Assembly: GCA_964016885.1 (NCBI GenBank)
Contig: OZ024741.1
Span: 306,714,001 to 306,778,000 of the forward strand
Length of the DNA stretch: 64,000 nucleotides
DNA from: Eledone cirrhosa
Lineage: Eukaryota
Direction: 5' to 3'
In this document: positions 15,401 to 59,100 of the stretch, piece after piece
How the letters are laid out: each line of letters opens with the position of its first letter
Numbering within the stretch: position 1 is the first letter of the stretch
Made by a program: the position numbers and the translations under genes
Notes under the pieces: generated by a model
Database searches by the model: none
What the model was told of the DNA's origin: nothing
The model's input: the letters and a program-made list of their open reading frames with translations, nothing else

Positions 15401-18400
15401 ATATATATTATCTTCCAGTTATTAGACAATAAATGCTGGCATGCAAACATCTGATGAACTAATTGTATTAAAGTCAAGTGACATTACATAATAGTGGATT
15501 ATGTCATATATTTATTATTGGCTTTCAGCTATTCAAGATGTGAAACACATTTCAAGCAAATAAGTTACTGTTAAATTATAATTTCATTTCATTAGGCTGA
15601 CCCGTTCCATCTTCACCTCCAAACATGACAGCATTGAAAACTGGGTGGACCCCACAATAACGCTAGATGTCATTCACAATCCTTATGACCACTATTGCTT
15701 CCCTCCTTCAGCAAGCAACAGGTAGCCTCATCCATGCAAGCATAGAAAATATAATTGAATGGTGATAATTATGTAATAATATATATGAAACTAGATTGCT
15801 CCAGTTTAGTTGGACATGAACAAAATATGATTTTGATACAATGGTAATGAAGTGAAATCTTCTTGTATACACATAAGTGTTTCTACTTTTGGCACAAGGC
15901 CAGCAATTATCCCAGTGCATTACTGGTACTTTATTTTATTAACTCCGTAAGGATGAAAGGCAAAGTTAACCTAGGCGGGATTTGAACTCAGAATGGCAAG
16001 GGCCGTAACTCTACGCATCAAAGCATGGTGTCCAACCCTCTACCGATACTGCCAATTCACTATGAAGTTTAATTAATAATTGTTTCTACTATTGGCACAT
16101 GGCCAGCATATTACCCAGTACATTACTGGTACTTTATTTTATCGACCCTGTAAGAATGAAAGACAAAGTTAATCTCGGCGGGATTTGAATTCAAAATGGC
16201 AAGGGCCGTAACTCTATGCGTCAAAGCATGGCGTCCGACACTCTACCGAAGTTTAATTGATAATGTTCAGTAAATTATTTGAACATTTTGTTTTAGTTTA
16301 ACTTTGTTCTTTTGATTGAGAGCATATCTGTTCATTACACTTATCCATGCTGATATATAATGATTCATAATGTTCAGTAGATTCTGTTGGAAAACAATGT
16401 GTTAGTCTTACCTCGATCTTCTGATGGACGGCAATTATCTCCATTACACCTATCTGATCTCTCAGCTTTGGTTCCTGAAAAATAATTGTTACATCATCAT
16501 CTTTATGTCAACTTTTCCATGCTGGACATTTTTTGATACAATGCTTTACAGTTAGATGCCTTTCATGATGCCAACCCTTTAGTCACCTCTTACAAGGTGT
16601 GTCAGCTGCGATCTCTGTTTATTAGGGAATATGTATATTGTGTGTATGTATGTATGTATCTATAAGATTTACAACTCTCAGAGACAATAAAATGTCAGAA
16701 GAATGAATGCAAATTTGTAATCATACCACCTCTATTCCAAGGATAAGCAGAGTGGTTATATGTCATTGTAAATTATTTGTTTCAATAAAAATACCTTCAC
16801 TACAAATATATAAGATTTCTCAGAAAACAATGAAATAGCACAAACATCACACATGCCTTAAATACTTGTTTCTACTTTAGGCACAAGGCCAGCAATTACC
16901 CAGTGCATTACTGAAATACTGAACCTTATTCAGTTTGCTAAAAAAAAATAAAATGCTGCCAAATCTTCAAAAACCCCATCCAGCAATCTTATGTATGGTG
17001 TCTTTTAACAAAATTTAATAAAAATATTATGTCCTTTTTTATATTAATATATTCACTGTCTTTAAACAATTTTTGTTTCATTCAATATCTTATTAATATT
17101 AGGGAGGTAGGGATTGACCATGAAATGCAGATATTAATTCCACGATTTTTGGAAAATGAGGATATTAATTCCAGTAAATTATTTGAAAATTTTGTTTTAG
17201 TTTAACATTGTTCTTTTGATTGAGAGCATATCTGTTCATTACACTTATCCATGCTGATATATAATGATTTATAATGTTCAGTAGATTCTGTTGGAAAACA
17301 ATGTGTTAGTCTTACCTCGATCTTCTGATGGACGGCAATTATCTCCATTACACCTATCTGATCTCTCAGCTTTGGTTCCTGAAAAATAATTGTTACATCA
17401 TCATCTTTAGGTCAACTTTTCCATGCTGGACATTTTGTGATACAATGCTTTACAGTTAGATGCCTTTCATGATGCCAACCCTTTAGTCACCTCTTACATG
17501 ATGCTAAGATACAGTTTATCTATTAAAAAAAAATGAGATACTGAATTTGAAGATGATCTTTATCCCTCACATAAAAATATGCAGTCTTTTAAATGTACCA
17601 CAAGGAGAGAATATCACATAGACCATTGTCTCCTAGACTGAGAGAAAGTTTAAACACACAAACAAAACTGCTTTTCATAGTTCCGAATCTTTAACAGTGT
17701 CGTATCTTAGTGCCCTAACTGTCAAGTCTATCTATTTTAAGCCAAATATAATACCTCATTACTCTATATTCATTTTTAATCTGTAATATTTGCTCAAGTT
17801 CAAAAGTGTGCCTGGGCTAACAAATTCCTACTCAAACTATATTTGAATAAAATAATTCACAATGACTTTAATTCCTAATTTTTCAAAGAAAATTAAATTT
17901 GTTTCAATTTCATAAATGTTACATGAACAAATATTTCCTCTGTACTGTCTGACTAGAAATTTCAGCCAGTTTATTATAATAAGCTGCTACTATTTTCCAA
18001 AGAAAATATAGCTTTTCTTTCAACATTATAAGTGTTATATGAACAAAATTTATCCTTCATACACTCAAGCCCGAACATTTCATCCAGGTAAAATTAACAA
18101 GCTGTATGATGCAAAAGAGGTGCAAGTGAATATGTTTAAAGTTTGGTTGTGTCAGCTGCAATCTCTCTTTATTAGGGAATATGTATATTGTGTGTATGTA
18201 TGTATGTATCTATAAGATTTACAACTCTCAGAGCCAATAAAATGTCAGAACAATCAATGCAAATTTGTAATCATATCACCTCTATTCGAAGGATAAGCAG
18301 AGTGGTTATATGTCATTGTAAAATATTTGCATCAATAAAAATACCTTCACTACAAATATATAAGATTTCTCAGAAAACAATGACACATGCCTTAAATACT

Positions 18401-20317: not shown

Positions 20318-20353
<36 letters not shown>

Positions 20354-23300: not shown

Positions 23301-26300
23301 TGGTTTATGAAGTTATAATTTATAATGTTCAGTAAATTATTTGAAAATTTTGTTTTAGTTTAACTTTGTTCTTTTGATTGAGAGCATATCTGTTCATTAC
23401 ACTTATCCATGCTGATATATAAGGATTTATAATGTTCAGTACATTCTGTTGGAAAACAATGTTTTAGTCTTACCTCGATCTTCTGATGGACGGCAATTAT
23501 CTCCATTACACCTATCCGAATTCTCAGCTTTGGTTCCTGAAAAATAATTATTACATCATCATCTTTAGGTCAACTTTTCCATGCTGGACTTGTTTTGATA
23601 CAATGCTTTACAGTTGGATGCCTTTCATGGTGCCAACCCTTTAGTCACCTCTTACATGATGCTAAGATACAGTTTATCTATTAAAAAAAAAATGAGATAC
23701 TGAATTTAAAAATGATCTTTATCCATCACATAAAAATGTGCAATCTTTTAAATGTACCACAAGGAGAGAATATCACATAGACCATTGTCTCCAAGACTGA
23801 GAGAAAGTTTAAACACACAAACAAAACTGCTTTTCATAGTTCCGAATCTTTAACAGTGTCAAATCTTAGTGCCCTAACTGTCAAGTCTATCTATTTTAAG
23901 CCAAATATAATACCTCATTACACTATATTCATTTTTAATCTGTAATATTTGCTCAAGTTCAAAAGTGTGCCTGGGCTAACAAATTCCTACTCAAACTATA
24001 TTTGAATAAAATAATTCACAATGACTTTAATTCCTAATTTTCCAAAGAAAATTAAATTTGTTTCAATTTCATAAATGTTACATGAACAAAAATTTCCTCT
24101 CTACTGTCTGACTAGAAATTTCAGCCAGTTAAATATAATAAACTGCTACTATTTTCCAAAGAAAATATAGCTTTTCTTTCAACATTATAAGTGTTATATG
24201 AACAAAATTTATTCCTTCAAACACTCAAGCCCGAACATTTCATCCAGGTAAAATTAACAAGCTGTATGATGCAAAAGAGGTGCAAGTGAATATGTTTAAA
24301 GTTTGGTTGTGTCAGCTGCAATCTCTCTTTATTAGCGAATATGTATATTGTGTGCATGTATGTATGTATCTATAAGATTTACAACACTCAGAGTCAATAA
24401 AATGTCAGAACAATCAATGCAAATTTGTAATCATATCACCTCTATTCCAAGGATAAGCCGAGTGGTTATATGTCATTGTAAAATATTTGCATCAATAAAA
24501 ATACCTTCACTACAAATATATAAGATTTCTCAGAAAACAATGAAATAACACAAACATCACACATGCCTGAAATACTGTTCCTTACTCAGTTTGCTAAAAA
24601 AAAATAAAATGTTGCCAAATCTCATTTAAAAACCCTATCCAGCAATCTTATGTATGGTGTGTTTTAACAAAATTCAATAAAAATGTTATGTCTTTTTTTA
24701 TATTAATATATTCACTGTCTTTAAACAATTTTTGTTTCATTCAATGTCTTATTAATATTAGGGAGGTGGGGATTGACCATGAAATACAGGTATTAATTTC
24801 GCGAATTTTGGAAAAAGGGGATATTAATTTATTGAGTTAAAAGAACATTACAAATGCCTAAACAACGTTATAAATTGCTCACAATTCATTCAGGAGAAAA
24901 TTACAAATATGATGTCATTAATAAAGACAAATATAAATGCATAAAAGAGAGAGAAAAAAAAGATGATATAAAAAAGGGGGAGGGGGATCAAAAACAAAAT
25001 TTGGAAAGTTGCACAAGGGTTCTCAGACAAAACAGGCTTCGGAACAGCTGCATTAGATAATGAAGTCCTACATATGCCTAAACTGATGAGATTTTCATGG
25101 CTGAAGAAGCAATTTCTTCACATTGAGGAATTCTTATATTTTCAACTATATAATATGAAGAAGTTTGAAAGTGTCTGCCTATACATTCTCTATGTAACAT
25201 ATGGACATATGGACATTTTGCAGCATACATAGTTGGTAAATGAGCTCAGGTATATGTGTCTGGCCAATATCTTTAACCCTTTAGTTACCAATCTGGCCAA
25301 AATTGGCTCTGGTTCTATGAAATAAAACCACCCATTTTAAAGGTTCAGCTATTCAAGATGTGAAACACATTTTAAGCAAATAAGTTACTGTTAAATTATA
25401 ATTTCATTTCATTAGGCTGACCCCTTCCATCTTCCCCTCCAAACATGACAGCATTGAAAGCTGGGTGGATCCCACATAATGCTAGATGTCATTCTCAATC
25501 CTTATGACCACTATTGCTTCCCTCCCTCAGCAATCAACAAGTAGCCTACCCTTGCTCTCATACCCCACCCCACTTTATATCACTGTTCTTTCCAGTGAGA
25601 CCAAAGACACAAGTGCCCTAGAGTTGATGTCTGGTATTGCTGGTACCACAATAAATTGCACTTAGCCCACAGTGCAGGTGATAAAATGCAGAAAGTCCAC
25701 AATATCAGGTAATAGTGGTGGTACCATAATAAACCACATCCAGTACATTCCTTGAAATAGTTAGCAGTAAGAAGGGTGTTTAGCCATAGAAACTATGCCT
25801 AAATAGAACATATGAATAAGAAACAGTTATCTGACCTGTCGAGCTTCAAAACATTTCAACCCATCTCATCCATGCAAGCATCACCATCATCATCATCATC
25901 ATCGTGTAACGTCCATCTTCCACGTTAGCATGGGTTAGACAGTTTTGTTCCATTTGATGTTGGAATGGTCGGGAGACCATGTCTCGCTCACACGGAAGCA
26001 ACCCTGGCAGGTTTTTTTACAGCTGGATACCCTACCTAACACCAACCACATTTACAGTGTGGACTGGGAGCCTTTTCACTGTGTCTCGTACACGACCACC
26101 TTACAGTGTGGACTGTTGTGCCATCGACACAGTGGACGGAACGGCAGAGGGATGGTGGGGTAGGGTGTGGCAGTGAGGTGTACATTGAGTTAAGAGGTGC
26201 GTACTGACTGTAGGTTAGTATGCAATGGTAGTCGGGTTTTCTGTACAGCTGTATAGCGCCAAAGGTCTCGATCCAGTGTCATTGTCTTAGAGATTTGTAG

Positions 26301-27052: not shown

Positions 27053-30000
27053 CTTTAACTTTGATAGGTTTTAGCCAGTATTGGCCCAGGCCATGTTTAA
27101 CTTAATAGTACGACCTGGTGAAGTTTTAAAATCAGGATTTGGGCACAATGGCCCACTCAAGTAGAGAGTTATTGTTTACGGAAGCATATCCGGGTGCAGG
27201 AGTTTTATCTGGGATTTCTTGAAGGAATTTGTTCAAAGACACCTTAATGTTAAAGAAAGCAGGGCCAATTGAGGTGAAATAATTGTGCCATAGTGTTGTT
27301 ATGAGATGCGAGTGAAATTTTTGTCATGGGCAGATCGCACATGACCCAATCTTTGGGTGTACCTTAGAGGTGATAATTATGAAATAATATATATGAAATT
27401 AGTTTGCTCCAATTTAGTTGGACATGAACAATATATGATTTTGATACAATGGTAATGAAGTGAAATCTTCTTGCATACATATAATGGTTTATGAAGTTTA
27501 ATTGATAATGTTCAGTAAATTATTTGAAAATTTTGTTTTAGTTTAACATTGTTCTTTTGATTGAGAGCATATCTGTTCATTACACTTATCCATGCTGATA
27601 TATAAGGATTTATAATGTTCAGTAGATTCTGTTGGAAAACAATGCTTTAATCTTACCTCGATCTTCTGATGGACGGCAATTATCTCCATTACACCTATCT
27701 GAACTCTCACCTTTGGTTCCTGAAAAATAATTGTTACATCATCATCTTTATGTCAACTTTTCTATGCTGGACATTTTTTGATACAATGCTTTACAGTTGG
27801 ATGCCTTTCATGATGCCAACCCTTTAGTCACCTCTTACATGATGCTAAGATACAGTTTATCTATTAAAAAAAAAAATGAGATACTGAATTTAAAGATGAT
27901 CTTTATCACTCACATAAGAATATGCAGTCTTTTAAATGTACCACAAGGAGAGAATATCACATAGACCATTGTCTCCAAGACTGAGAGAAAGTTTATACAC
28001 ACAAACAAAACTGCTTTTCATAGTTCCGAATCTTTAACAGTGTCGTATCTTAGTGCCCTAACTGTCAAGTCTATCTATTTTAAGCCAAATATAATACATA
28101 ATTACACTATATTCATTTTTAATCTGTAATATTTGCTCAAGCTCAAAAGTGTGCCTGGGCTAACAAATTCCTACTCAAACTATATTTGAATAAAATAATT
28201 CACAATGACTTTAATTCCTAATTTTCCAAAGAAAATTAACTTTGTTTCAATTTCATAAATGTTACATGAACAAATATTTCCTCTGTACTATATTAATTCC
28301 ACGATTTTTGGAAAATGGGGATATTAATTTATTGAGTTAAAAGAACATTACAAATGCCTAAACAACATTACAAATTTCTCACAATTCAATCAGGAGAAAA
28401 TTACAAATATGATGCCATTAATAAACAAAATTAATAAACACAAATATAAATGCATAAAAGAGAGAAAAAAAAAGATGATGTAAAAAAGGGGGAGGGGGGG
28501 GGATCAAAAACGAAATTTGAAAATTTGGTGACCCCTTCCATCTTCCTCTCCATCATCATCATCATCATCATGTAACGTCCATCTTCCACGCTAGCATGGG
28601 TTAGACAGTTTTGTTCCATTTGATGTGGGAATGGTAGGTAGACCATGTCTCGCTCACACGGAAACAACCCTAGCAGGTTTTTATTACAGCTGGATGCCCT
28701 TCCTAACACCAACCACATTTACAGTGTGAACTGGGAGCCTTTTCACTGTGTCTCCTACATGGCCACCTTACAGTGTGGACTGTTGTGCCATCGACACAGT
28801 GGATGGAACAGGAGAGGGACGGCGTGGTAGGGTGTGGCGGTGGGGTGTACATTGAGTTAAGAGGTGCGTACTGACTGTAGGTTTGTATGCAATGGTAGTC
28901 GGGTTTTCTGTACAACTGCATAGCGCCAAAGGTCTCGATCCAGTGTCATTGTCATAGAGATTTGTAGGTGGGCAAGGTCAATTTTTATCACCTCGTCCCA
29001 GGTTTTTCTTGCTCTACCTACTCCAACAGCTTCCATCACTTTTCATTGCCCTGTACTTTTTTATACAGCTGTCGTTCTTCATATGCATCACATGTCCATA
29101 TCAAGGCAATCTCCTCTCCAGAACACAACATTTGATACCTCTTATGCTTAGTCTCCCTCTTAGTATATATTTTTTTCTATTCTAAGGCGGGTAAAATTCC
29201 CGAGATCCATGGACGACTTCTCTCCAGAGGTCTCTGTCCCTCATTACCGCTGCCATGTCCTGCGTCTCCAACAGACCAGTGTCTGTCCTTAGGGCATCAA
29301 CATACGTTAACCTTGGTCTTCCTCTTCTAGTGTGTCCATGTAGAGGCTCCCAAAGGAACACTGAGTGCAATGTCAACTCTGGATGTCGGTGAGCATGTCC
29401 AGCTAACTTCAGTCTCCTCTGTGTCACTTTTGAGCTGACTTTTGGGATGCTCCCATACAGCTCTGAGTTTTTCATCCTCAGTGTATACTGATTAATGTTC
29501 AGCGCCATCCTCAGCATTCTCGTGTAGCACCCATCCACCATCTGAGTGAGTTTCTTGGTCAGTGTCCAAGTCTCAGACCCATACAGCAGTACAGACTCCA
29601 CTACAGCCATGAAGAGGCGGATATTCCGGTCTCTACGAAGATCCAACTTCCACACTGATCTCAAGCTGTGGCACGCCGCCCAGGCCTTGCTCTTCCTCTC
29701 AACCACAACAAACCGCCGTATTCCCAATCTTTGCTCCCAAATACAGGAAGCCCTCAACCAATTCTAGTGGCTTCCCGCCTACATTAGTGATCCCCTCTGG
29801 CTTCTCAACATTCTCTACCAGATATTTTGTTTTAGTCTCATTCATTCTCAGCCCCACACTCATCGACACAGTCTCAACCTCCCGCATCAAATCCTCTGCC
29901 TCCTTCACTGTATTTGTCACCAAAACTATGTCGTCGGCAAATTCAGCATCTGTTACCTTTTTCGCCCTTACTCTCCTGCTCTGAGCCGGTGCTACAGTAA

Positions 30001-33089: not shown

Positions 33090-36000
33090 CTTTGATAGGT
33101 TTTAGCCAGTATTGGCCCAGGCCATGTCTAACTTAATAGCACCACCCGGCGAAGATTTCAAATCAGCATTTGGGCATCATGGCCCACTCAAGTAGAGAGT
33201 TATTGTTTACGGAAGCCTATCTGGGTGTAGGAATTTTATCCGGGATTTCTTGAAGGAATTTGTCCAAAGACTCCTTGAATGTGATGGGGTCTGTTTCCGT
33301 ATTAATGTGTTTTGGTGTAATGTTAAAGAGAGTAGGGCCAATTAAGGTGAAATAATTGTGCCATAGTGTTGTTATGAGATGCGAGTGAAATTTTTGTCAT
33401 GGGCAGATCGCACAGGACCCAAGCTTTGGGTGTACCTTAGAGGTGATAATTATGAAATAATATATATGAAATTAGATTGCTCCAATTTAGTTGGACATGA
33501 ACAAAATATGATTTTGATACAATGGTAATGAAGTGAAATCTTCTTGCATACATATAATGGTTTATGAAGTTTAATTGATAATGTTCAGTAAATTATTTGA
33601 AAATTTTGTTTTAGTTTAACATTGTTCTTTTGATTGAGAGCATATCTGTTCATTACACTTATCCATGCTGATATATAAGGATTTATAATGTTCAGTACAT
33701 TCTGTTGGAAAACAATGTTTTAGTCTTACCTCGATCTTCTGATGGACGGCAATTAACTCCATTACACCTATCCGAACCCTGACCTTTGGTTCCTGAAAAA
33801 TAATTGTTACATCATCATCTTTATGTCAACTTTTCCATGCTGGACATTTTTTGATACAATGCTTTACAGTTAGATGCCTTTCATGATGCCAACCCTTTAG
33901 TCACCTCTTACATGATGCTAAGATACAGTTTATCTATTAAAAAAAAATGAGATACTGAATTTGAAGATGATCTTTATCCATCACATAAAAATATGCAGTC
34001 TTTTAAATGTACCACAAGGAGAGAATATCACATAGACCATTGTCTCCAAGACTGAGAGAAAGTTTATACACACAAACAAAACTGCATTTCATAGTTCCGA
34101 ATCTTTAACAGTGTCAAATCTTAGTGCCCTAACTGTCAAGTCTATCTATTTTAAGCCAAACATCATTACACTATATTCATTTTTAATCTGTAATATTTGC
34201 TCAAGTTCAAAAGTGTGCCTGGGCTAACAAATTCCTACTCAAAATATATTTGAATAAAATAATCCACAATGACTTTAATTCCTAATTTTCAAAAGAAAAT
34301 TAAATTTGTTTCAATTTCATAATGTTACATGAACAAAAATTTCCTCTGTACTGTCTGACTAGAAATTTCAGCCAGTTAAATATAATAAACTGCTACTATT
34401 TTCCAAAGAAAATATAGCTTTTCTTTCAACATTATAAGTGTTATATGAACAAAATATATTCCCTCAAACACTCAAGCCCGAACATTTCATCCAGGTAAAA
34501 TTAACAAGCTGTATGATGCAAAAGAGGTGCAAGTGAATATGTTTAAAGTTTGGTTGTGTCAGCTGCAATCTCTCTTTATTAGGGAATATGTATATTGTGT
34601 GTATGTATGTATGTATCTATAAGATTTACAAAACTCAGAGCCAATAAAATGTCAGAACAATCAATGCAAATTTGTAATCATATCACCTCTATTCGAAGGA
34701 TAAGCAGAGTGGTTATATGTCATTGTAAAATATTTGCATCAATAAAAATACCTTCACTACGAATATATAAGATTTCTCAGAAAACAATGAAATAGCAAAA
34801 ACATCACACATGCCTTAAATACTGTACTTTACTCAGTTTGCTAAAAAAAATAAAATGTTGCCAAATCTCATTCAAAAACCCCATCCAGCAATCTTATGTA
34901 TGGTGTGTTTTAACAAAATTCAATAAAAATGTTATGTCCTTTTTTATATTAATATATTTACTGTCTTGAAACAATTTTCGTTTCATTCAATGTCTTATTA
35001 ATATTAGGGAGGTGGGGATTGACCATGAGATACAGATATTAATTCCACGATTTTTGGAAAATGGGGATATTAATTTATTGAGTTAAAAGAACATTACAAA
35101 TGCCTAAACAACATTACAAATTGCTCACAATTCATTCAGGAGAAAATTACAAATATGATGTCATTAATTAACAAAATTAATAAACACAAATATAAATGCA
35201 TAAAAGAGAGAAAAAAAAAGATGATGTAAAAAAGGGGGAGGGGCGGGGGGAATCAAAAACAAAATTTGGAAATTTGGTGACCCCTTCCATCTTCCTCTCC
35301 ATCATCATCATCATCATCATGTAACGTCCATCTTCCACGCTAGCATGGGTTAGACAGTTTTGTTCCATTTGATGTGGGAATGGTAGGTAGACCATGTCTC
35401 GCTCACACGGAAGCAACCCTAGCAGGTTTTTTTACAGCTGGATACCCTTCCTAACACCAACCACATTTACAGTGTGGACTGGGAGCCTTTTCACTGTGTC
35501 TCCTACATGGCCACCTTACAGTGTGGACTGTTGTGTCATCGACACAGTGGACAGAACAGTGGGGTAGGCCATGTCTAACTTAATAGCACCACCCGGCGAA
35601 GATTTCAAATCAGCATTTGGGCATCATGGCCCACTCAAGTAGAGAGTTATTGTTTACGGAAGCAATCTGGGTGTAGGAGTTTTATCCGGGATTTCTTGAA
35701 GGAATTTGTCCAAAGACTCCTTGAATGTGATGGGGGTCTGTTTCTGTATTAATGTGTTTCTGTGTAATGTTAAAGAGAGTAGGGCCAATTAAGGTGAAAT
35801 AATTGTGCCATAGTGTTGTTATGAGATGCGAGTGAAATTTTTGTCATGGGCAGATCGCACAGGACCCAAGCTTTGGGTGTACCTTAGAGGTGATAATTAT
35901 GAAATAATATATATGAAATTAGATTGCTCCAATTTAGTTGGACATGAACAAAATATGATTTTGATACAATGGTAATGAAGTGAAATCTTCTTGCATACAT

Positions 36001-39000
36001 ATAATGGTTTATGAAGTTTAATTGATAATGTTCAGTAAATTATTTGAAAATTTTGTTTTAGTTTAACATTGTTCTTTTGATTGAGAGCATATCTGTTCAT
36101 TACACTTATCCATGCTGATATGTAACGATTTATAATGTTCAGTACATTCTGTTGGAAAACAATGTTTTAGTCTTACCTCGATCTTCTGATGGATGGCAAT
36201 TAACTCCATTACACCTATCCGAACCCTGACCTTTGGTTCCTGAAAAATAATTTTTACATCATCTTTATGTCAACTTTCCATGCTGGATATTTTTTGATAC
36301 AATGCTTTACAGTTAGATGCCTTTCATGATGCCAACCCTTTTAGTCACCTCTTACAAGATGCTAAGATACAGTTTATCTATTAAAAATAAAAATGAGATA
36401 CTGAATTTAAAGATGATCTTTATCCCTCACATAAAAATATGCAGTCTTTTAAATGTACCACAAGGAGAGAATATCACATAGACCAGTGGTCGCCAACCTT
36501 TCTAAAACCGAGGAACCCTCTAAATATTTTGAATTCTTCACGGAACCTATACAATACAAAACTTTTCAAAATAAATAATAAAGTATTTATTTATTTTAGT
36601 GTTTCATGCGTGTGTATTTAATCGAACACAATGGCTTTACTGCTGCTGCGCCTCATCAGTGAGTTTAGAAAATCGAGCTTCAACACTAGTTAATGCCAGT
36701 TTCATACACTCGTCAATTGCTGACAGTTTATTCCTCTTCTTTGTGCAGATTTCCACCAACTGCGAAAACCCTTTTTCGCACAAATAGCTAGATGGGAATA
36801 AAGTCAAATACTTCAATGCAAGTTGGCTGATTTCATTAAACTCCCCAATCAAGAATAAGTCGATCCATAGTTCTTTCTTTCTGCTTTCGAATATCACTTT
36901 CAGGTCTTCGTTTGAATTCAAATCCATCAACTGATGTAAGCATTGGGCAGGTAGTAAATTTTTACAATTTCCAGCGTCATTTTCTGACACTAACTGCTCG
37001 ATCTCGGTGAACGGGTTTTTTATCCATAAATTTCCGCTAACAATATCTTTTTCCATCAAGTCAAAATAATCTGAAAAACCTGTGGAAAGCACATTTAAAT
37101 GAGAAAGAATAATCTGGAGTCAAAATTTTCTCTCTTTCTTAGCTCTATTTCAAGGTTTAAAAGTAATTGACCGATTCAATTCTTTTTATAAAGATGTTTA
37201 ATTTTGATTGAAAATATGTAATAAAATTGATTGAAGTAAAAATATCTGCATTGTTACCCTGAAGACACTTATTTAGTTTGTTCAGTTCACCAAAAATGTC
37301 TACTAAATAAGCGAGTTGCACATTCCATTCATTGGTTTCTAATACACTTGCTCTTTCATCATTCTGTTTTTTTAGAAAAACTATTATTTCTTCTCTCAGT
37401 TCAAAAACTCTCTTCATAGTATCCCCAAAAGACAGCCAACGCACATCATTGTTCAATAACAATCTATCATAATTACTTCCAGAAGATTCACAAATAGATT
37501 CAAACATTCTAGAATTTTTTGCTCTTGCATGGATCGAATTGATAATTTTGACAATGTCTTTCAGCTGGTCATTTAATATTTGAGCATCTCTGTCTTTGAA
37601 TTTTTTTTAACACAAAACCTCTCAATGAATCATACAATGATTTGAAATACAATTTGGGGTCTGTTCTTTAATTTTTGCAATCAAACCAGAATTTTTACCA
37701 GTCATTGCAGCTGCTCCATCTGTTGTTATTGAAGTCAACTTGCTCCAAGATACACCATTTTTTAAAAAATACTCTTCAATTTTATTGAATATATCTTGAC
37801 CTTTAGTTGTGATGTCTAATGCCAGACAAAACAAATACTCTTCTACTAATTCTTTTTTATCAAGGTCTACAAAGCGTACATAGCAAATTTATTGAGCCTT
37901 GTTATTAATATCCGTAGTTTCGTCCACTTGCAGTCCAAAACATGGGCTTTTCTTTAGTGCAGTTAGTATCTGATTTTCTATATCAGAAGAAATATCAATT
38001 ATCCCTCTTTTTACGGTATTTGCTGACAATGGTAACTGGCTTGATTTTTCTTTGTCCTTAATACTGCAGCTTTCAAAAATATTCTCTGTAGCAATTTTTA
38101 TACTTGGCAGAATTAACTGTTCTCCTAATGTAAATGGTTTCTTGTTTTTACCAATCAAATGTGAAATCTCAAAAGATGTTCTTGTTAAAGCTTTATTTCT
38201 ATCTGACTTTTTACAAAACAAGTCATACATATTAGCTTGTGATTTTTCATGTTGTTTTTCAGCGAAGTAAAGTATTCCAGTGACTTGTTTTTATCATTGG
38301 TGTGATTAGTATCAATGTGTCTTTTAAGTTTTGCAGGATTTAAACAGCTATTTGATAGAACTTTTGAACATAGCAAACACATGGGCTGATCTGGTGTATC
38401 TTTTTTAGTGTATCTTTTTTAGTGTCAGCTTTTTTAAATCCATATCTAACATAATCATCATACTACTATCTAACCTTACTGTTGGTATCTAACTTCAGCT
38501 TCTTTGCAGTAGACATCATATCAATGTTATTTATCTACAGTTAACATTTTTAATATGACAAGAGAAATTAACAGTTTTTTTAATTACAAAAAGTACTTAA
38601 ATTAACTTTAAATTTAGATATTTGGAAAAACTTAACTAGTTTAAAAAAATTTTAATTTTTAAAAATTGAAATTTCTCCATTTTAGGATGGCAAACATATT
38701 ATTTAACGTCTTATAATAATATTAAAATATTAGGGGTTACTGAAAAAGGTACAAATTTATGAACTAGAAGAAATTTTTTTCAGAGTCCAGCACTTCCTGC
38801 ATATACTACTTTAGGGTCGTATTAAATATTATTGGTAATGTAAATATATTTCATCAAATGAATACATAATTGTGTGGCAAAGTTTATAGTGTATGCATGG
38901 AATACAAAATTACCTTTGTTAGTAGTCAAAACTTTACAGGCATTATATTTTCTCTGCAAAGTACAACAGAATGTAACGTGTTCTTATTTAGAATTGTCTG

Positions 39001-41970: not shown

Positions 41971-42004
<34 letters not shown>

Positions 42005-42406: not shown

Positions 42407-42439
<33 letters not shown>

Positions 42440-45400: not shown

Positions 45401-48400
45401 ATTCTACATCAAACAATCTCCAGCAAAAAATAAGCAACTACAACATTTATAAATATAAAAATAATATGACCACACCACCAGAACATAATTTAAATAAGAC
45501 TGCACCATTTAAAAGGACAAATAATACAATCCTTCAACCTGGAAAACACAACCACCCAAATCACCAACACAAAAACAACATAACACAAAATCACAATACA
45601 ACCCCAGCACTAAATCACCCACAAAGCAGCACTCATTTTCTCTCTAACATTAATTACAATAAGAATAGCTCAAGGATTAATGAGAATTATGTAGGTACCC
45701 CCAACAACCATCTTACATATGGTTGTAATTGCAGAAATAGAAGCCCTTGCCCCTTAAATAGCAACTGTTTGATTAATAATGTAATATATAAATGCACTGT
45801 GTCTACTACTGACTCCAACAAATCATATATAGGATCTACATCGAACACATTTAAGAAAAGATATTACGCACACTCCAGTAGCTTTAACAATACTAAACTA
45901 GTTAACACCACATCTTTAGCTGAAGCAGTAAATAACTATAAAAAGAAAAAATATATTTCAAGCTATCGTGGGATACCATTCTGCAAAGAACTCCATATAT
46001 TGGAAACAGAAGAGAATGCAGATTATGTTCCGGGGAGATCTTGGAAATTACTAAATCTAAGGACGATTTATTGAATAAAAGACAGGAACTGATTATAGCT
46101 TGTAATCACCGTATACGAAAATAATCTAAGTACTATAAACCTAATTAAACACTCTAAATAGCAACTCAATATAGTTCTATGTGACGTACCATTTGTTAGT
46201 ATCCCTTTCCCCTAATTATATGCCTTCCTGTTTATTCTTTAATTTTTTAACCTTTTTATTTATTAGCTTCCATAGATTCATGCGTTACTGACTAAGGGCA
46301 TCAAAGTACATAACCATCTGTAATTGCATGGGTATACATGTATCTATGTATGTATGATAAGAGAATATATGTATATATAAATATATGTATGTATATATAT
46401 ATGTGTATGTGTGTGTATATGTGTATGCACATTTATGTGTGTACATGTATATATGTATGTATAAGTGTGTATATATATATGTTTGTGTGCGTGTATATAT
46501 GTGTATGTATATGTTTATATCTATGTATGCGTATGTATGTTTTTAATGGAGTATCAATGTAATTATATCTCTATTTATATATGTGAATATTTGTACTTTT
46601 GTGATCTAAGAAAATTATGCGTTTTGACTATATGTCAACATGCATTTATCTGAGTTTGATTACTTATACATTGACCCACTTGAAAATATTTACTATTTTA
46701 TATTTTATGATACATCATACGCTATATTATACTATATACAATGTACCATACGGTACTATATTATATTACATTATATTATATTATTATATTATTATATTTT
46801 ATTATCTTATTATAATTTTCATCTTTTAATATACTATCCTTCCCTTCCTAGTTATGACCATTACTTTACCTATCTATATTTATCCTAAAAATTACCTATC
46901 TATATTCATCTAAAAATTCCATACAACACAACTCAACATTTAATTTTTACATTCCTTTTAAACTTCACTCCACCATCTACATTCCACTATCAATATAACA
47001 ATCCCTTTTCTTCATAGGTTCTTCATAGTAATTCTATTTTTAACACCATTCAACCATTCCTTTCAAAAGGCCATGACCTCAACTAAAGTGAGTTATATTT
47101 CATCGTAACACCATATGGCAAAAAACAATTTGATTGGTTTGTTCTTCAGCTACCTCCAAATAAGGTCATAGAACTCAATTTACTATTGATTTTGAATAAA
47201 TTTTCATTGCTTTTGACAACGGATGATGATATACATGTAGGTAAATATATTCCTTATTTGATATTTTGTAACTAACCCTACATAGATCGATAATGAAATA
47301 TGCGTACGATGTATTATTATTACCTAGAAGCGATCGTAAAGCAGTGAAGTATATTTCTAATTACTTGAATTTTTATTTCATTGTTTTAACTTTATATATA
47401 TATTGTATATCTATATATATACAATGATATTAAATAAATGAAAACTATATTTATAAAACCAGATTTATTTTATTATATATATTTCAAGGGTACCAAGACA
47501 ACATTGTATTTTATCTGATGAAAGCGTACCAATGTTGTCTTGGTACCCTTGAAATATATAATAATAAAATAAATATGGTTTTATAAATATCGTTTCCATT
47601 TATTTAATATCATTGAATATTTACTCCAGTTAACTGTTGAGTGCTCTAAATCAGTTATAAACATTTATATTTGTCGGACTTCCAACAAATTAAATACCCT
47701 TATATATCATCATCATCAGGTTTAGCGTCCGTGTTCCACGCTTGCATGGGTTTGGACGGGGGTTTTCCCACTTGAGGCAAGAGTGGTTGTCTTGCTCGCA
47801 TAGGACTGTCTGGCGGGTTTTCTACAGTTGGATGCCCTTCCTAACACCAACCACATTTACAGTGTGGGGCTGGGAGGTTTTTACCGTGTTGCCTACACGG
47901 CCACATTACAGCGTGGACTGTCTGGCGGGTTTTCTACAGCTGGATGCCCTTCCTAACACCAACCACATTTACAGTGTGGGGCTGGGAGGTTTTTACCGTG
48001 TTGCCTACACGGCCACATTTACAGCGTGGACTGTGTGTTTTTTTGTCGTGACACCTACATGATCTCATTTGTTTCGGCCTGGATGTTGTGGGACCAACAT
48101 AACTGTACATTGAAAGGGGCGGTGTGGATGGGGTGGAGGTGGTGGGACGGGGGGGTGTTTTGATAGAGATGCCTACTGACTGTAGTAGGTTTTTACTTTG
48201 TATTTAGGTAAGGCGGGTCTTCTCTATTACTGAGTACCGCCAAAGGTCTCGGTCCAGTGACATTGTCTTGGAGAGGTGTAAGCGTGTGAGGTCGGAATTT
48301 ATCAGCTCGTCCCATGTTTTTCTGGGTCTGCCTACTCCGTGGCTACCGTCTATCTTTATTGCCCTGCACTTTGTTATACAGCTGTCGTCTTTCATGCGCA

Positions 48401-50154: not shown

Positions 50155-53100
50155 TGTATATATATATATATTAACTTTGATAACTTTGATAGGTTTTGGC
50201 CAGTATTGGCCCAGGCCATGACTAACTTAATAGCACCACCCGGCGAAGTTTTCAAATCAGGATTTGAGCACCATGGCTCACTCAAGTAGCCCACATATCC
50301 GGATGTAGGGGTTTTATCAGGGATTTCTTGAAGGAATTTGTCCAAAGACTTCTTGAACGTGATGGGGTCTGTTTCTGTTTTAATGTGTTTTGGTGTAATG
50401 TTAGAGAGAGCAGGGCCAATTGAGGTGAAATAATTGTGCCACTTTGTTGTTATGAGATGCGAGTAAAATTTGGGGACCCAAGCTTTGGGTGTACCTTAGA
50501 GGTGATATTTATGTAATAATATATATGAAATTAGATTGCTCCAATTTAGTTAGACATGAAGAAAATTTGATTTTGATACAATGGTAATGAAATGAAATCT
50601 TCTTGCATAGATATAATGGTTTATGAAGTTTAATTGATAATGTTCAGTAAATTATTTGAAAATTTTGTTTTAGTTTAATATTGTTCTTTTGATTGAGAGA
50701 ATATCTGTTCATTACACTTATCCATGCTGATATATAATGATTCATAATGTTCAGTAGATTCTGTTGGAAAACAATGTTTTAATCTTACCTCGATCTTCTG
50801 ATGGACGGCAATTAAATCCATTACACCTATCCGATCTCTCACCTTTGGTTCCTGAAAAATAATTGTTACATCATCATCTTTATGTCAACTTTTCCATGCT
50901 GGACATTTTTTGATACAATGCTTTACAGTTAGATGCCTTTCATGATGCCAACCCTTTTGTCACCTCTTACATGATGCTAAGATACAGTTTATCTATAAAT
51001 AAAAAAAACGAGATACTGAATTTAAAGATGATCTTTATCACTCACATAAGAATATGCAGTCTTTTAAATGTACCACAAGGAGAGAATATCACATAGACCA
51101 TTGTCTCCAAGACTGAGAGAAAGTTTAAACACACAAACAAAATTGCTTTTCATAGTTCCGAATCTTTAACAGTGTCAAATCTTAGTGCCCTAACTGTCAA
51201 GTCTATCTATTTTAAGCCAAATATAATACCTCATTACACTATATTCATTTTTAATCTGTAATATTTGCTCAAGTTCAAAAGTGTGCCTGGGCTAACAAAT
51301 TCCTACTCAAAATATATTTGAATAAAATAATCCACAATGACTTTAATTCCTAATTTTCCAAAGAAGATTAACTTTGTTTCAATTTCATAAATGTTACATG
51401 AACAAAAATTTCCTCTGTACTGTCTGACTAAAAATTTCAGCCAGTTAAATATAATAAACTGCTACTATTTTCCAAAGTAAATATGGCTTTTCTTTCAACA
51501 TTATAAGTGTTATATGAACAAAATATATTCCCTCAAACACTCAAGCCAGAAAATTCAATCCAGGTAAAACTAACAAGCTGTATGATGCAAAAGAGGTGCA
51601 AGTGAATATGTTTAAAGTTTGGTTGTGTCAGCTGCAATCTCTCTTTATTAGGGAATATGTATATTGTGTGTATGTATGTATGTATCTATAAGATTTACAA
51701 CTCTCAGAGCCAATAAAATGTCAGAACAATCAATGCAAATTTGTAATCATACCACCTCTATTCCAAGGATAAGCAGAGTGGTTATATGTCATTGTAAAAT
51801 ATTTGCATCAATAAAAATACCTTCTCTACAAATATATAAGATTTCTCAGAAAACAATGAAATAGCACAAACATCACACATGCCTTAAATACTGAACCTTA
51901 CTCAGCTTGCTGAAAAAAATAAAATGCTGCCAAATCTCCTTCAAAAACCCCATCCAGCAATCTTATGTATGGTGTCTTTTAACAAAATTCAAGAAAAATG
52001 TTATGTCCTTTTTTATATTAATATATTCCCTGTCTTGAAACAATTTCTGTTTCATTCAATATCTTATTAATATTAGGGAGGTGAGGACTGACCATGAAAT
52101 GCAGATATTAATTCCGCGATTTTTGTACAATGGGGATATTAATTTATTGAGTTAAAAGAAAATTAAAAATGCCTAAACAACATTATAAATTGCTCACAAT
52201 TCATTCAGGAGAAAATTACAAATATGATGTCGTTAATAAACACAAATATAAAGGCATAAAAGAGAGAGAAAAAAAAAGATGATGTAAAAAATGTGGGGTG
52301 GGGATCAAAAACAAAATTTGGAAAGTTGCACAAGGGTTCTGAGACAAAACAGGCTTGGGAACTGCTGCGTTAGATAATTTAATCCTACATATGCCTAAAA
52401 TTATGAGATTTTCATGGCTGAAGAAGCAATTTCTTCACATTGAGAAATTTTTATATTTTCAACTATATAATATGAAGAAGTTTGAAAGTGTTTGCCTATA
52501 CATTCTCTATGCAACATATGGACATATGGACATTTTGCAGCATAAATCCTTGGTAAATGAGCTCAGGTACATGTGTCTGGCCAATATCTTTAACCCTTTA
52601 GTTACCAATCTGGTCAAAATTGGCTCTGGTTCTATGAAATAAAACCACCCATTTTAAAGGTTTACAATTTAAATTAAAATCTTCCAGCATAATTTTATAT
52701 AATCACCTTACATTAAGTTACTATCTTAGAATGAAATAATTACTTAATATAAAGCAAATCTCTCAAAATTCTTCATTAATTAATTTAAATAGACTATATT
52801 TAATTAAAAATGTGGTCATGAAAAGGTTAAAAAATTCAAATGAAGCAATGCCATTTTAGTGTTACACTTCATAAATTGTTTTTTTCTCTATTATGTCTGA
52901 AACTGTTAGACTAATTCAATCTTTGCTAACTAGTTGCAAACAAAAGATGCTTCTCAATCTTTTGGCAAAAATCAGTCATTCTTAAGATGAACAATGACTC
53001 AGTAACAGTTGTCTTCACAAGTTTGTATTTCCATAAACAATGGAGCTAAAGGTGAGTGAGGCACTACCCATCGGAGGAGATACAAACTATGGAGTGTGGA

Positions 53101-56100
53101 AATGCCTCAACAGATTAAGATCTGGTGTTGGTTGTGCAAAAGTCAATCTGGCAAAATAGGGATATTTAAAGGATGGGGACGTTGTGTGTGACTATGGCAT
53201 CGAACAACAGACTATGCAGCACCTCCTGATATGCCCCTGCACAGCATTGTTCTTGGCAGAGCTTAATGAGAAAGGACAGCAATGTGTTCACCTGTGGTGG
53301 AATCACATCTATCCAAACTTTGTAGCTGACACTCTTCTGGACATGATAAGAAGAATTTCCATTAAAAAAATTGTTGATTTAGAATGACAAAAAGAATCAC
53401 ACAATATATTAGAGGAGTTCGTTATAAAACCAAAGCACTTGGAATTTATGTTTAAATAAAGCAACTTACTTTTTATTAAAAAAATATGCAGTTTATTTTT
53501 TAATGTACTATTGCAGTGTCTATTATATATACATGTAAATGTGCTGTTGATCCTAGTACAGAATAGCCTTTCAAATCTAAACTATAATAAAGGAAGGTCT
53601 GCGGGATTGCGTACGGTTTATTTTTTTTATCCCATTTGTAAAATAAGTTGGATTACTTTGAATAAATAATGAATGAATATTACATAATTTATCTACTAAA
53701 TTTCGTGGCTGTTCATTAAATATATTTTGTTTATTTAAAGATTCACTTCTTTAAAATTTCTGAAATGTCAACACTTCCGGTGGCGATCGCTTAAATAAAC
53801 ATACTAATTTTCCGTCACTAATTTTCTTCTAATACAGTTTATATATAATATCGTCTTTTTTAATGTATCATGGATTACATTACTGATTGCATAAGACTGT
53901 ATAACGCAGTCTTCGTTCAATTTTTATGTATTTTATATTGTCAATTACAATTTTATTTGATGTATCATATCAACATGTATATATACCTGCGTATAATATC
54001 AATATACACACTAGCAGAAAACCACCCGAAGGGTGATTTTTCTGCTAGTAATTTTAATAAAGAAATGCATTGGACATTAAAGAAGAAAATCTTTCCTATT
54101 AGTTCTCACCACATCAAAGAACTATAGCTTGCTAAATTTGTTTGTTAAATTGATGTGATTATAGATCACATGAGTTTGTACCCCTCACCCCCACCCTCGG
54201 ATTTTGTTTCCTCCCAGTTTTTAAATAGTGCATAGTTTTTAATGAAATTTTGCAGATGCAATTTAGAATATGTAGATTATGATTAGTGGTATACTAGTGA
54301 TAAAGTTGTTGGACTTACAATCATAATGTCATGGGTTCAATTCCTGGCTGGGTTGTGTGTTGTGTTCTTGAGAAAAACACTTGATTTCACATTGCGCCAG
54401 TATACTCAGCTGAAAATGTGTATCAGCAATAGCTGGGGGTTTAACCCTGCGATAGACTGGTGTCCTGACCAGGAGGGAGTCTTGTACTTTCACTTGCTTC
54501 ACTCCACAAAACTGGGATAAGCACCGATCTAATGAGCTGCCAGGCTTGAGACAGACTTTAGAGATTATGATTAAGTTGAGGAAATTAATTTTTATGTATA
54601 TTATACATAGTTGTTGGAATGACATTATATCCCTCTTGTTATGCTTTATAGGTCATCTAAAATAGTCAAAATATTCAAAATATCTACAACAACCTTCAAA
54701 AACTTTGGCTTCTGTTTCAGTTGAATGTAAGACAGTAGGTTAAAAATAGATTGACTGAGTTGTCGATCCTGAAGCCTTGGTGTACTCTCGGGTCCCAAAT
54801 AATGAGGGAGGGAGAGCAATAAGTGAGGAGTTGTAAAATGGGCAATTTTTCTAGGTTGCATCCTTCGATTTTTGATAAAAACCAGAATTAGCTGTTTAGT
54901 TTACATATTGAGACCCCCAACCCATTCAATTTGTGTTAAAATGTATAGGATTTCTTGTAATGTTCATTTTTTGTCATGTATAATGTTTTTTTAATGTATA
55001 AAGAAAATCACTTGTTGCAGAAATGCAACTACTTAAAATAAAATTTTGCCGGAGATAGTTTAGCAAAATTTAATAAGCAGGAAAAGGAGGGGGGTGCTGA
55101 AAAATCAATAAGATTATTTAAGACGATTATTCAAGATTATTCAAGTAGTTGTTTTATTTTAAACATTTCTATGAATAAAGACAAATATTGAAATCAATCT
55201 TCATAAAATAAACCAGTTATCAAGTAATTACAGCATATACACACAGAGATTTTTTCAATTGTAGTTTGATAAAATTGTAGTTAGGTGCTTAAATTATTCT
55301 ATTAACTCCGAAACTCTAAATTGTACATTTGCTAAATTTTACTAAAAATTGTGCTAAGCCTTAGTAAAATGGATGAGCTAGAGTTACCCCTAGTAACAAT
55401 ATACACAATATTAATATGATTTAACAAATGAAGAATGCAGTTTACAAGGAACAACACAAACATCAAATTGTTTGAAAATCATCTTTTAGTTTTACCTTGA
55501 TGTTTTGGTGGAGGGCAATCTGTTTCATTACACTTAGCTGTTTTCCCTGGTATCTTTGCTGAAAGAGATAAGTTTTACATGAATATAAGAATTAACTTTT
55601 TATTTCCATAACTTTAGATACCAAAACATATTTTGGTGTTCACCAAACCTATACCAATATTGTCAATATTATATTTGATATATAAAACTGTTTTAAAATT
55701 GTCTTAGTAATACCTTGAGTTGATGTGGGAGGGCATTTGCTATTGGTACATTCTATTGTTCCTTCCACCCTGCATTTACACATATTACAATTGTCTGCAG
55801 AATTGAATATCTGCCCGCTTATGTATATTTTTCCATTGTAGCGGCATTCTTTAGAAATGAGATTGTTCTCCTTTGTAAGTTCTGGAAGATTACATGAATA
55901 AAATATGAATTTGAAGATCTTCATCATTCACATAAAAGTACTCGGCTAGCCCAGTGAACTTTTATATGTAAGATGAAGAGAGAATTACATATAGTCTTTG
56001 ATACAGTCTAACAAATGTGTAACAGCATACAAATAATTAACAGACTTGATGAATGGAGAGCCAAGATAGCAGGAACGACACACGGCACAGATTTTTAATT

Positions 56101-59100
56101 ATCAATTGATATATATCTTTTACTACATACATTGTTTGAAAATCATATTTTAGTCTTACCTGTATGTTTCGTTGGCTCGCATGACCCATCTTTACACATA
56201 TCCGTGTTCTGTGATGTGTTTCCTTGAAGAGAGAGGTTTTAAATGGATCTAAGAATTAACTTTTCACTTCCATTTTTATAACTTTATATATCAAAACATA
56301 TTTTTATCACCAAACCTATATTCCCATAGCAACATTACCAATATAACATTTGATATATAAAGCTGTTTTAAAATTATTTTTTTAGTATTACCTTGAGTTG
56401 TACTGTTAAGACACATTTTTTTGGTGCAGTCTATACTTCCTTTGTTCTTACATTTGCATTTATTACACTTATCTATTGTAATGAATACTTGTCCAATTAC
56501 AAATATTTTTCCATTGTAGAGACATTCTTTAGGAATGGGAGCTGCTCGGTTTGCAAAATCTGGAATATAAGTTTTACATGAATGAAATATGAATTTGAAG
56601 ATGTACACTATCACTCACATAAAATACTTGGTTAACTCAGTGAGTTTTTATACATACGAGGGTGGGCTGAAAAGTTCATAGGCTGACTATGAAGGAATGA
56701 TGCTAAGGCAGTGAAATCTTACATTCATTAATTTAAACTGTTTTTATTAATAACTGCATTGTTTCTTTTCCAGGTAAACTGACATCTGATTGTTCAAAGA
56801 AGTCTTCAAAAATAACTAGTAGTGATTTATCTTGAAAATGAACAAAATTTGGTTTTGTAGTGTTATCAAGTACCTGCAGAATAAAGGTTTAGCCCCCAAG
56901 AACAATCATGCTGACATGGTAGCTACATTAGGGGAAGACACTCCAGCTTTATCGACAGTGAAAAATGGGCAGTTAAATTTAGGAGGGAAGTGAGAATCTT
57001 GAAGATGGTCCAAGGTCTGGATGCCCTGCAATTGCCGCCAAGAAAAACATTAACCATGTTCATCATATGGTGATGGATGACAAGTGATTGACTATAAATC
57101 AAATAGTCAATGCATATTCCATGAGAGAGTTGAGAATATTCTGCACCATTAACTTGGCATGATGAAGGTTTCTGCTTGGTGGGTGCTATGTCTTCTGACA
57201 CCAGATCAAAAGTGTACCAGGCTGATCACACCATGAGAAAATCTGACATTGTTGGATGTAGATTCAGATGGTTTCCTTGAATGTTTCCTAATCCAGGATG
57301 AGTGTTGGATTCATAACTTTGAGCCAGAGACAAAGAGAGAATCCATGCAGTAGAAACTACCTTCCTCACCTACACCAAAAGAGGTCAAGGTCATTTCATC
57401 TGCAAGAAAGGTGAAGGCCTCAGTTTGTTGAAATGCAAAAGGCATTGTGTTTATTGACTATCTTCAAAAGGGCCACACCATCAATGGAGAGTACTATACC
57501 AATTTGCTGAAGCAGTTATGAAAGGTTTTCGAGACCAAACACCTAAGAAAATTGACGAAAGGGGTTTTGTTTCATCAATGCATAGGTCCTTGGTTTCAAT
57601 GGTTGCTGTGTATGACTGTTGCTTCGAACTGGTTGATCACCCTCCCTATTCTCCTGATTTGGCTTCATTTGACTATCATCTGTTGTTCAATTTGAAAAAG
57701 CACTTGGCCGGTAACCAGTATAGCAGTGAAGATGAAGTCATATCTGCTGTTGATGAAAGCTTCTTCACTGATGGGATACAAGCACAGCAACACCAATGAA
57801 AGAAATGTGTGGACTGAAAAATAAGCCTCATATTGTCAGATTCCTTGAGAGTATCTTGATCAACCTATTAACTTTTTAGCTGACACTTGTAAGATGAAAA
57901 GAGAATTACTTATGGTGCAATAGTCTAAAAGAATGAAAGAAAGTTTAAAAACACAAAATTATTTTTCATAGTTCCAAGTCTTTGATACATTCTAACAAAT
58001 GTGTAACTACTTACAAATAACTAACATGACTTGATGAATGGAGAGCCAAGATATCAGGAACAACACACAGCAAAGATTTTAAATTATCAATTGATATATG
58101 TCTTTGACGTCATACATTGTTTGAAAATCCTATTTTAGTCTTACCTGCACGTTTTGTTGATAGGCATGACAAATCTTTACACATATCCATTTTCTGTGAT
58201 GTGTTTTCTTGATGTGTTTAATGAATCTAAGAATTAACTTTTCATTTCCATTTTTATAACTTTAAATATCAAAACATATTTTTATCACCAAACCTATATC
58301 CCCATAGCAACATTACCAATATTACATGTGCTATATAAAGCTGTTTTTTATATATAAAGCTATTTGTTTAGTATTACCTTGAGTTGTACTGTTAAGACAC
58401 ATTTTTTTGGTGCAGTCTATACTTCCTTTGTTCTTACATTTGCACTTATTACACTTAGCTATTGTAATGAATACTTGTCCAATTACATATATTTTTCCAT
58501 TGTAAAAATCAACATTAATATGAAGACAAGTCCCATCACATTATTTAACTATTTTGAAATTCATGTACAATATGTCACCCCACAAAGAAGTTACTTTCCT
58601 TTAGACCCAAGAAAAACAATGAATTCTAACACATAACATTCAGTACATTCTATTTCAAAATAAAATTTCCATACCAGGTAGTAAATTTTTGAAAATACAT
58701 TTTTTTTTGGTACACTCTATACTTCCATAGGCCTTGCATTTGCACTTATTACAGCCATCTGGAGCACTGAACACCTGTCCAAATATGTATATGTGTCCAT
58801 GGGAGTGACATAAATGGAAATTTACCCTCTGGGGTTCTGAAAGAAAAAATTTTACATGTGTTTCTGATAAAGTAGAATATGTTCTTCATCGATATTTGGT
58901 CAGCTTATTGTGCTGTTTATATTTAAGATGAAATTGTCTCAGAGATCTAGGCAAAAGATAAACAAGTAAATTAAATTGTTTACTTTAGTTCCAATTTTCT
59001 AAGATTATTTAACAGAAGAGACATAATATATGAATCATTAATATGACTCGATGCCATGAGAGTGGAGAGAAATATGTTTATAAGAAGCACTGAAGTCAGA

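Follow-up and report, generated by a model that had tools for sequence, protein, structure and literature searches.

Candidate two-cysteine mini-exons apparently derived from a six-cysteine pacifastin/VWC-type exon of an octopod gene

Octopus proteins annotated as 'kielin/chordin-like' or 'VWFC domain-containing' (XP_014784907.1, XP_052827939.1, CAI9730160.1) carry a 38-residue module with six cysteines (Cys) in tandem, and pacifastin genes are already known to have grown through duplicated exons and to yield splice forms in which modules are skipped (PMC2689174, in part). Here we describe a gene of the octopod Eledone cirrhosa with the same kind of module, referred to below as the host gene, in a 64,000-nucleotide (nt) stretch of contig OZ024741.1 (positions 306,714,001 to 306,778,000; the window). 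Its large exons, each predicted to encode one module (Cys numbered C1 to C6), are accompanied by ten candidate exons of 63 nt with only two Cys, which we call mini-exons or minis; exons are named by their higher coordinate, that is, by the acceptor side on the minus strand. Our leading reading, held tentatively and at somewhat less than even confidence, is that the ten candidates descend from one six-Cys exon by in-frame loss of its middle, likely with C2 and C6 kept, and that, if spliced, they would encode disulfide-closed charged spacers in a likely secreted matrix protein, and not inhibitors.

Among the described systems, the 'ancestral' pacifastin-like domains (PF05375; PMC13388995, in part) share with the large modules the six Cys, an Asn after C2 (26 of our 27 large modules), a Gly in the C4-C5 loop (at C4+4 in 26 of 27), an extended Gly/aromatic N-terminal hairpin and a K or E at P1. 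The C1-C2 spacing of the large modules is x18, outside the C1-x9-12-C2 of the conventional arthropod pacifastin class, and judging from the sequence they fit the extended 'ancestral' class. The minis differ from these domains in having two Cys and neither core nor hairpin, and the available part of PMC13388995 makes no mention of truncated or degenerate modules. Trichoplax tapp-1 and the insect pacifastin precursors (PMC2689174, in part) resemble the host gene in that exon duplication has given them dozens of modules and that entire modules are missing from some splice variants; the tapp-1 module is split over two three-Cys exons, whereas the host gene has one module per symmetric exon in addition to the deletion-derived two-Cys exon. 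Bowman-Birk loop peptides and SFTI-1 (PMC7760496, in part) are like the mini in that one disulfide closes a short loop, but their loop spans nine residues, Cys inclusive, with Thr-P1-Ser and Pro-Pro, whereas the mini would close into a ring of six residues that has G, E or D at P1, and the origin is unrelated. The Sepia egg-case proteins (SepECP) were considered as relatives and set aside, as their Cys motif differs (PMC4500399, in part). Our literature search found no description of a deletion-derived two-Cys exon in the pacifastin family.

A VWC domain has ten Cys. The VWC and fibronectin type I-like modules of mucins, VWF, collagen IIA and CCN3 were the top fold matches of the large module, whereas the host modules end after six Cys, and all five matches to the VWC profile (PF00093, positions 1-39 of 57) stayed below its cut-off of 27.6 bits (22.5-27.5 bits). 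The Pfam profile Pacifastin_I (cut-off 27.9 bits) was reached by four of the six large exons in the window, at 28.3-33.3 bits, while the other two fell below it. Thus, of the two families to which an earlier note on this DNA had likened the exons, only pacifastin was recovered at the cut-off.

Mini-exons and their homology to the large exons

The ten mini-exon candidates lie on the minus strand (Table 1). Each is 63 nt long, of phase 1-1, free of stops and bounded by AG and GT, and all ten end with C-x4-C-x6-G followed by gt, as the earlier note had described. The same ending had been ascribed to most large exons; it occurs in five of the six in the window and in 16 of the 27 nearest ones, and exon 58836-58675 has x7 instead. 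Since a microexon is 51 nt or less in length, the name 'microexon' used in that note does not suit exons of 63 nt. In nine of the ten minis, the 20 residues scored include 2-5 K or R, 2-5 D or E and 0-2 hydrophobic ones.

Three of the minis (58207, 56222 and 55558) come after large exons or a truncated one, and the other seven form an array at 16.2-52.7 kb, one per unit of a segmental duplication. The units are several kb each, consist mostly of repeats and are about 89-98% identical, which bears out the proposal that the small exon was amplified after its birth. Acceptors of the array minis consist of CAG with a pyrimidine tract, and donors read GTAAGA in seven of seven. About 60 nt downstream of each array mini we found a decayed second copy (7/7), closest to mini 55558, which the earlier note had not listed. 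An eighth partial copy of the array unit, without a mini-exon, lies at 39631-42474.

The flanking introns are related as well. Both blocks previously pointed out beside the exons are present: the donor block adjoins all seven array donors and recurs past the 58675 donor, and the acceptor block occurs in its strict form at 17543, 33957, 55907 and 56591. We compared each flank with the best of 27 large exons and with 300 dinucleotide shuffles (floor p=0.003). The acceptor flank gave p=0.003 for minis 50851 and 17378 (against 55881 and 56559), and p=0.08, 0.23 and 0.87 for 55558, 56222 and 58207, respectively; the donor flank gave p=0.004-0.006 for 56222, 50851 and 17378, and 0.12 and 0.17 for 55558 and 58207. 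Five of the ten tests were thus below 0.01, the two array copies not being independent of each other, so that the absence of similarity that would have spoken against the earlier proposal was not observed. A cruder, unanchored comparison of flanks in pairs gave little signal: z exceeded 3 for 4 of 108 donor pairs and for 2 of 108 acceptor pairs. With a profile of large-exon donors from which the splice consensus was excluded, the minis ranked in the top 0.2-9% of 2321 GT[AG]A sites. The flank similarity beyond shuffles in half of the tests indicates that homology to the large exons extends to either side of the minis. Within the exons, the tail after the second Cys scored best at C6 in five of five lineages (codons +5 to +11, sliding profile scan), and the first five mini codons scored best at the start of the 11-codon linker (summed scan). 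The homology at the acceptor flank, the start of the linker, the tail behind C6 and the donor flank together upholds the suggestion that the minis arose from large exons by internal deletion.

Two DNA searches of the whole 3.0-Gb genome matched only the three and seven copies of the window. An nhmmer scan that covered 200 kb of sequence on either side of the window, the next 160 kb on the downstream side and 40 of the 52 kb of the unplaced contig C1469 gave no intact mini. Among 27 Octopus entries (57 distinct modules) there was no two-Cys mini, and only full modules stood at the comparable place; the gene models could miss 63-nt exons, so that the mini is either lineage-restricted or unannotated there. 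The 179 related proteins contained 24 isolated C-x4-C motifs, none with D-x-C-N or D-x-C-K. A single-exon homologue search gave no match, and a search among shorter proteins gave 13 matches, in which the five single-exon open reading frames examined encoded the full module and no mini. Contigs of one sequenced sample, whose three runs we took as DNA because introns are covered, differ little from 55300-59800 and carry array variants at 16438-16463 whose summed depth exceeds that of single-copy parts. This speaks against an assembly artefact, though the sample may be the window's own.

Cysteines of the minis and constraint on them

To identify the first Cys of the minis, we used 83 modules, 27 from the E. 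cirrhosa genome and 56 from Octopus. D at -2 combined with N at +1 is found at C2 in 74 of them and at C1, C3, C4 or C5 in none, and V or I at -2 marks C5 in 81. The first Cys of the minis has D at -2 in nine of ten and N at +1 in eight, and V or I in none. Codons -3 to +1 scored best at C2 in five of five lineages (sliding profile scan), and the 12 nt around this Cys have 0-2 mismatches to the nearest C2 and 4-5 to the nearest C5; the C2 context of exon 56559 is identical to that of a decayed mini over 12 of 12 nt. In a tree-based profile likelihood, the favoured arrangement was linker codons 1-6, D-K-C2-N, three codons of the post-C5 register, C6 and the tail. This two-deletion model stood 8-12 bits above the best single deletion with no penalty applied, and the marginal log2 Bayes factor, averaged over breakpoints and offsets, was 0.1-5.7 in the 12 root/branch settings. 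It favoured C2 in all 12, by at least 1.8 in ten and barely in two; the minimum was reached when the root adjoins 56222/58207, a root disfavoured, with weak support, by the 77-nt tree. Other arrangements scored poorly: a new acceptor within a large exon without internal deletion was rejected (15-20 bits, compared with 41-47 for the best model), as was C1 as the first Cys (24-27 bits), and C4 as the second Cys with a mutated C3 was disfavoured (5-10 bits under the best junction).

These results suggest that the first mini Cys is C2 rather than C5, by a modest lean. Pacifastin disulfides connect C1-4, C2-6 and C3-5 (PMC2689174 and PMC13388995, in part). If the retained Cys are C2 and C6, native partners were kept, and the deleted C1, C3, C4 and C5 make up two complete pairs; since 3 of the 15 possible Cys pairs are native, this is suggestive and not proof of selection. 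The earlier view of the mini as a loop alone, whose Cys had lost their partners, is therefore doubtful: the P1-P1'-P2'-C6 register is probably retained, while the context of the first Cys points, with the same modest lean, to C2, the native partner of C6.

Four mini lineages, about 19-43% apart, were examined for constraint over 67 sites, with the fifth, decayed lineage left out. They differ at 35 of these sites, yet AG, GT, both Cys, the length and the open frame are kept (P=0.0016 for random placement; simulation, P=0.0004 at the exon rate and 0.012 at the intron rate). The minis diverged faster than the adjoining introns (12/63 vs 28/328, p=0.02; 25/63 vs 26/182, p=5e-5), and nonsynonymous exceeded synonymous divergence (pN > pS) in most between-lineage pairs, with very small counts.

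Rival readings of the minis

The clearest competitor for the origin of the minis is a single deletion that fused linker codon 8 to C5. The two Cys would then be C5 and C6, D-x-C-N would have arisen by two or three later substitutions, and the Cys, deprived of C3 and C2, would ring-close or cross-link chains, which would make the mini a spacer or a cross-linking site. Such an origin takes one event rather than two, inherits the x4 spacing directly and accommodates the three codons ahead of the second Cys, which suit the post-C5 register under both models. It has to explain, however, why the minis carry D and N at positions where no C5 has them and why the V/I or T/S of C5 occurs in no mini; with the profile Bayes factors as well, we regard it as rather unlikely.

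Several results nevertheless weigh against our own reading. With single extant parents the Bayes factor was close to zero (-1.3 to +1.9, 10 parents), and with 56559/55881 as parents it was 1.6-9.7 while the C2 share of support ran from 0.01 to 0.85. Under one deletion, exon 3494 has 5 of 17 mismatches to mini 58207 in linker codons 1-5 and 5-6 of 15 over codons -3 to +1, compared with 2-5 under C2, although only one of 19 parents is as low as 5 mismatches for all lineages. The disulfide pairing of the large modules is borrowed from pacifastins, to which the fold matches are weak, and no signal peptide was identified for the host gene. One of the five mini lineages is decayed, and it is the one that the constraint test omitted. 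The large pair 56559/55881 also outpaces its own intron (42 of 133), so that intron conversion is a rival cause of the rate gap between exon and intron. Within the array, 9 of 63 exon columns vary, compared with 31 of 254 in the flank, and eight of the nine lie in residue-changing codons; with variation so similar to that of the flank, no selection acting on the recent copies themselves is apparent.

The last points lead to the possibility that the minis, above all the array seven, are silent passengers, exon-like relics in segmentally duplicated intron DNA that are skipped in mRNA. The array copies lie in repeat-rich units and vary like their flanks, and the locus holds other dead exons, namely 58504-58378, which has no acceptor, the seven decayed minis and, upstream of the window, two large exons that are broken. 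Moreover, the acceptor of 58207 is weak and the 27 Octopus entries lack the mini. Debris of this kind would hardly be expected to retain frame, length, both Cys and splice dinucleotides in four diverged lineages, or intact acceptors and donors throughout the array, and we consider it unlikely. Entries of O. bimaculoides differ from one another by whole modules, as would be expected for cassette exons.

The earlier note had proposed that the mini is a stand-alone protease-binding loop, in effect a natural minimised pacifastin inhibitor. The probably retained P1-P1'-P2'-C6 register would suit this, as would the Pacifastin_I scores of the large modules and their K at P1 (13 of 27), and pacifastins have been reported in octopus posterior salivary glands (PMC7693380, in part). 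In the minis, however, P1 is G in seven, D in two and E in one of ten, and P2 is Thr in none. All ten have two Cys, with N or K after the first where C5 would be followed by Thr. The pacifastin loop is held to the core by two disulfides (PMC2689174, in part), and in the minis that core is deleted, with it the C3-C5 anchor; a P3-P3' ring would presumably bend a loop that needs the extended form. Because of the residues at P1 and P2, the lost anchor and a ring shorter than the nine-residue Bowman-Birk/SFTI-1 loop, which is known to work alone (PMC7760496, in part), an inhibitor role is very improbable, and this part of the earlier proposal is not supported.

The leading reading, in which C2 and C6 are kept, may be set out as follows. 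Two in-frame deletions, of 22 and 13 codons, would have removed C1, C3, C4 and C5 from a 168-nt exon, leaving an acceptor, about six linker codons, D-K-C2-N, three codons of the P1-P1'-P2' register, C6, the tail and a donor. C2 and C6 would bond to each other as a six-residue ring, so that no free thiol would remain, and, as a phase 1-1 cassette, the mini could be included or skipped with the frame unchanged. Each included mini would add 21 residues, hydrophilic and for the most part charged, with a C-x4-C ring, and the seven of the array together would form a flexible stretch of about 147 residues between folded blocks, perhaps tuning their spacing. 'Ancestral' pacifastin-like domains are described as matrix-associated (PMC13388995, in part), and kielin/chordin-like VWC-only proteins as the most abundant in the argonaut eggcase matrix (10.1101/2021.07.10.451900, in part); by analogy with both, the host protein may have a matrix role. 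A fuller scenario is of a module at birth, in which two deletions left a C2-C6 ring, selection acted on the Cys, the exons diversified faster than their introns and an alternatively spliced array came to tune an octopod matrix protein. We regard this whole sequence of events as possible, though doubtful.

Host gene and its surroundings

The host gene extends well past the window on the contig. We searched 264 kb with a profile, that is, the window with 120 kb on its upstream and 80 kb on its downstream side. This gave 46 modules with the pattern C-x18-C-x2-C-x-C-x7-C-x4-C, of which 42 have all six Cys and four are broken or altered, and 27 further modules follow in the next 160 kb downstream. 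On the unplaced 52-kb contig C1469 (6994-15220), five modules match N-terminal modules of an O. bimaculoides protein and are likely the 5' part of the host gene. In total there are about 78 modules, one per predicted phase 1-1 exon, which would all belong to a single gene. The best protein relatives of the window are the Octopus 'kielin/chordin-like' proteins, of which the host gene is, on sequence grounds, the orthologue, with modules of pacifastin/VWC type; modules 17-21 of one of them (P0035) are near-collinear with the modules downstream of the window (24-29 of 38 residues identical).

Sequence matches of the large module in the PDB were MUC5AC (top, E 1e-4) and locust-type pacifastins. 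An AlphaFold2 model of the exon 55881 module is a beta-strand module (pLDDT 78). Its fold resembled chains of VWC, fibronectin type I and pacifastin only weakly, with 0.04 as the best Foldseek E and 4.8 as the best Z (pacifastin chains, E 0.15-0.48 and Z 3.1). An Atlas search gave scores all below 0.8 (VWC2L-like, pacifastin).

Other features of the locus are as follows. Exon 3494 closes with a 27-nt duplication (3281-3341) that yields two in-frame donors, 3327 and 3282, 15 codons apart, and the flank of the 3282 donor is similar to that of the mini 55558 donor (6 mismatches in 30). Upstream of the window, near contig positions 306782500, 306790600 and 306830700, are three altered large modules: one has a stop at C5, one has lost C2, C6 and the acceptor, and one has Tyr for C1, which would leave its C4 unpaired. 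The host gene has a second recent expansion of about 44 near-alike full modules, spaced 1.4-7 kb apart at about 306552000-306683000 of the contig; in the 19 modules counted, P2 is mostly Q or H and P1 mostly E, which differs from canonical inhibitors. Further clusters of the same six-Cys module on contig C1 (207.6 and 217.3-217.7 Mb) and on contigs C440 and C451 fall inside long open frames (340-2200 codons), often as identical copies, and are probably separate multi-module genes. Within the window, 42608-43547 recurs in inverted orientation at 46471-47397 (94% over 947 nt), and 43887-44239 and 46127-46480 make up another inverted pair. A high-copy insertion (56650-57880) separates the 58207 unit from exon 56559; its contig depth is far above that of its flanks, and one of its frames resembles what we take to be the C-terminal motif of a mariner transposase. 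The insert ahead of the array acceptors was considered as a decayed repeat, and this was rejected, as BLAST gave only the seven array copies in that region.

Table 1. Exons, exon relics and homologous intron blocks in the window
Feature	Position	Strand	Pacifastin_I score
Large six-Cys module exon, 165 nt, phase 1-1 (predicted)	59477..59641	-	33.3 bits
Large six-Cys module exon, 162 nt, 7-codon tail (predicted)	58675..58836	-	28.3 bits
Intron block past the 58675 donor, homologous to the block past the array donors	58633..58661	-	
5'-truncated copy of the 56559 exon, without acceptor and C1; likely skipped	58378..58504	-	
Mini-exon, 63 nt, two Cys; weak acceptor (AAG, poor pyrimidine tract)	58145..58207	-	
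Acceptor-flank block common to array units, 84% over 45 nt	56581..56624	-	
Large six-Cys module exon, 168 nt (predicted)	56392..56559	-	30.3 bits
Mini-exon, 63 nt, two Cys	56160..56222	-	
Acceptor-flank block common to array units; within a 102-column alignment with the 17378 flank	55897..55940	-	
Large six-Cys module exon, 168 nt (predicted); modelled with AlphaFold2	55714..55881	-	
Mini-exon, 63 nt, two Cys	55496..55558	-	
Array mini-exon 1	50789..50851	-	
Decayed second mini copy (5' part and acceptor gone; second Cys and GT lost)	50680..50725	-	
Array mini-exon 2	36177..36239	-	
Decayed second mini copy	36068..36113	-	
Array mini-exon 3	33730..33792	-	
Decayed second mini copy	33621..33666	-	
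Array mini-exon 4	27657..27719	-	
Decayed second mini copy	27548..27593	-	
Array mini-exon 5	23474..23536	-	
Decayed second mini copy	23365..23410	-	
Array copy of the large-exon acceptor-flank block; about 150 nt, including an insert, between block and acceptor	17532..17576	-	
Array mini-exon 6	17316..17378	-	
Decayed second mini copy; 82% over 73 nt to mini 55558 and its donor flank	17207..17252	-	
Array mini-exon 7, identical in sequence to exon 6	16412..16474	-	
Decayed second mini copy	16303..16348	-	
Large six-Cys module exon, 168 nt (predicted); fits best as sole parent if the minis arose by one deletion	3327..3494	-	

Meaning for disulfide-rich modules and octopod matrix genes

Disulfide-rich domains are expected to gain and lose Cys in pairs, and the steps of such changes are rarely visible. 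As parent exons, derived exons, decayed copies and flanks lie here within 60 kb, one can follow at single-base level how a minimal module emerged from a known fold. Should the minis turn out not to be spliced, what remains is ordinary exon-duplication debris. The finding also draws attention to an octopod gene that has received little study, with about 78 modules and an exon content that varies among species; genes of this kind are candidates for matrix materials, as the argonaut eggcase illustrates.

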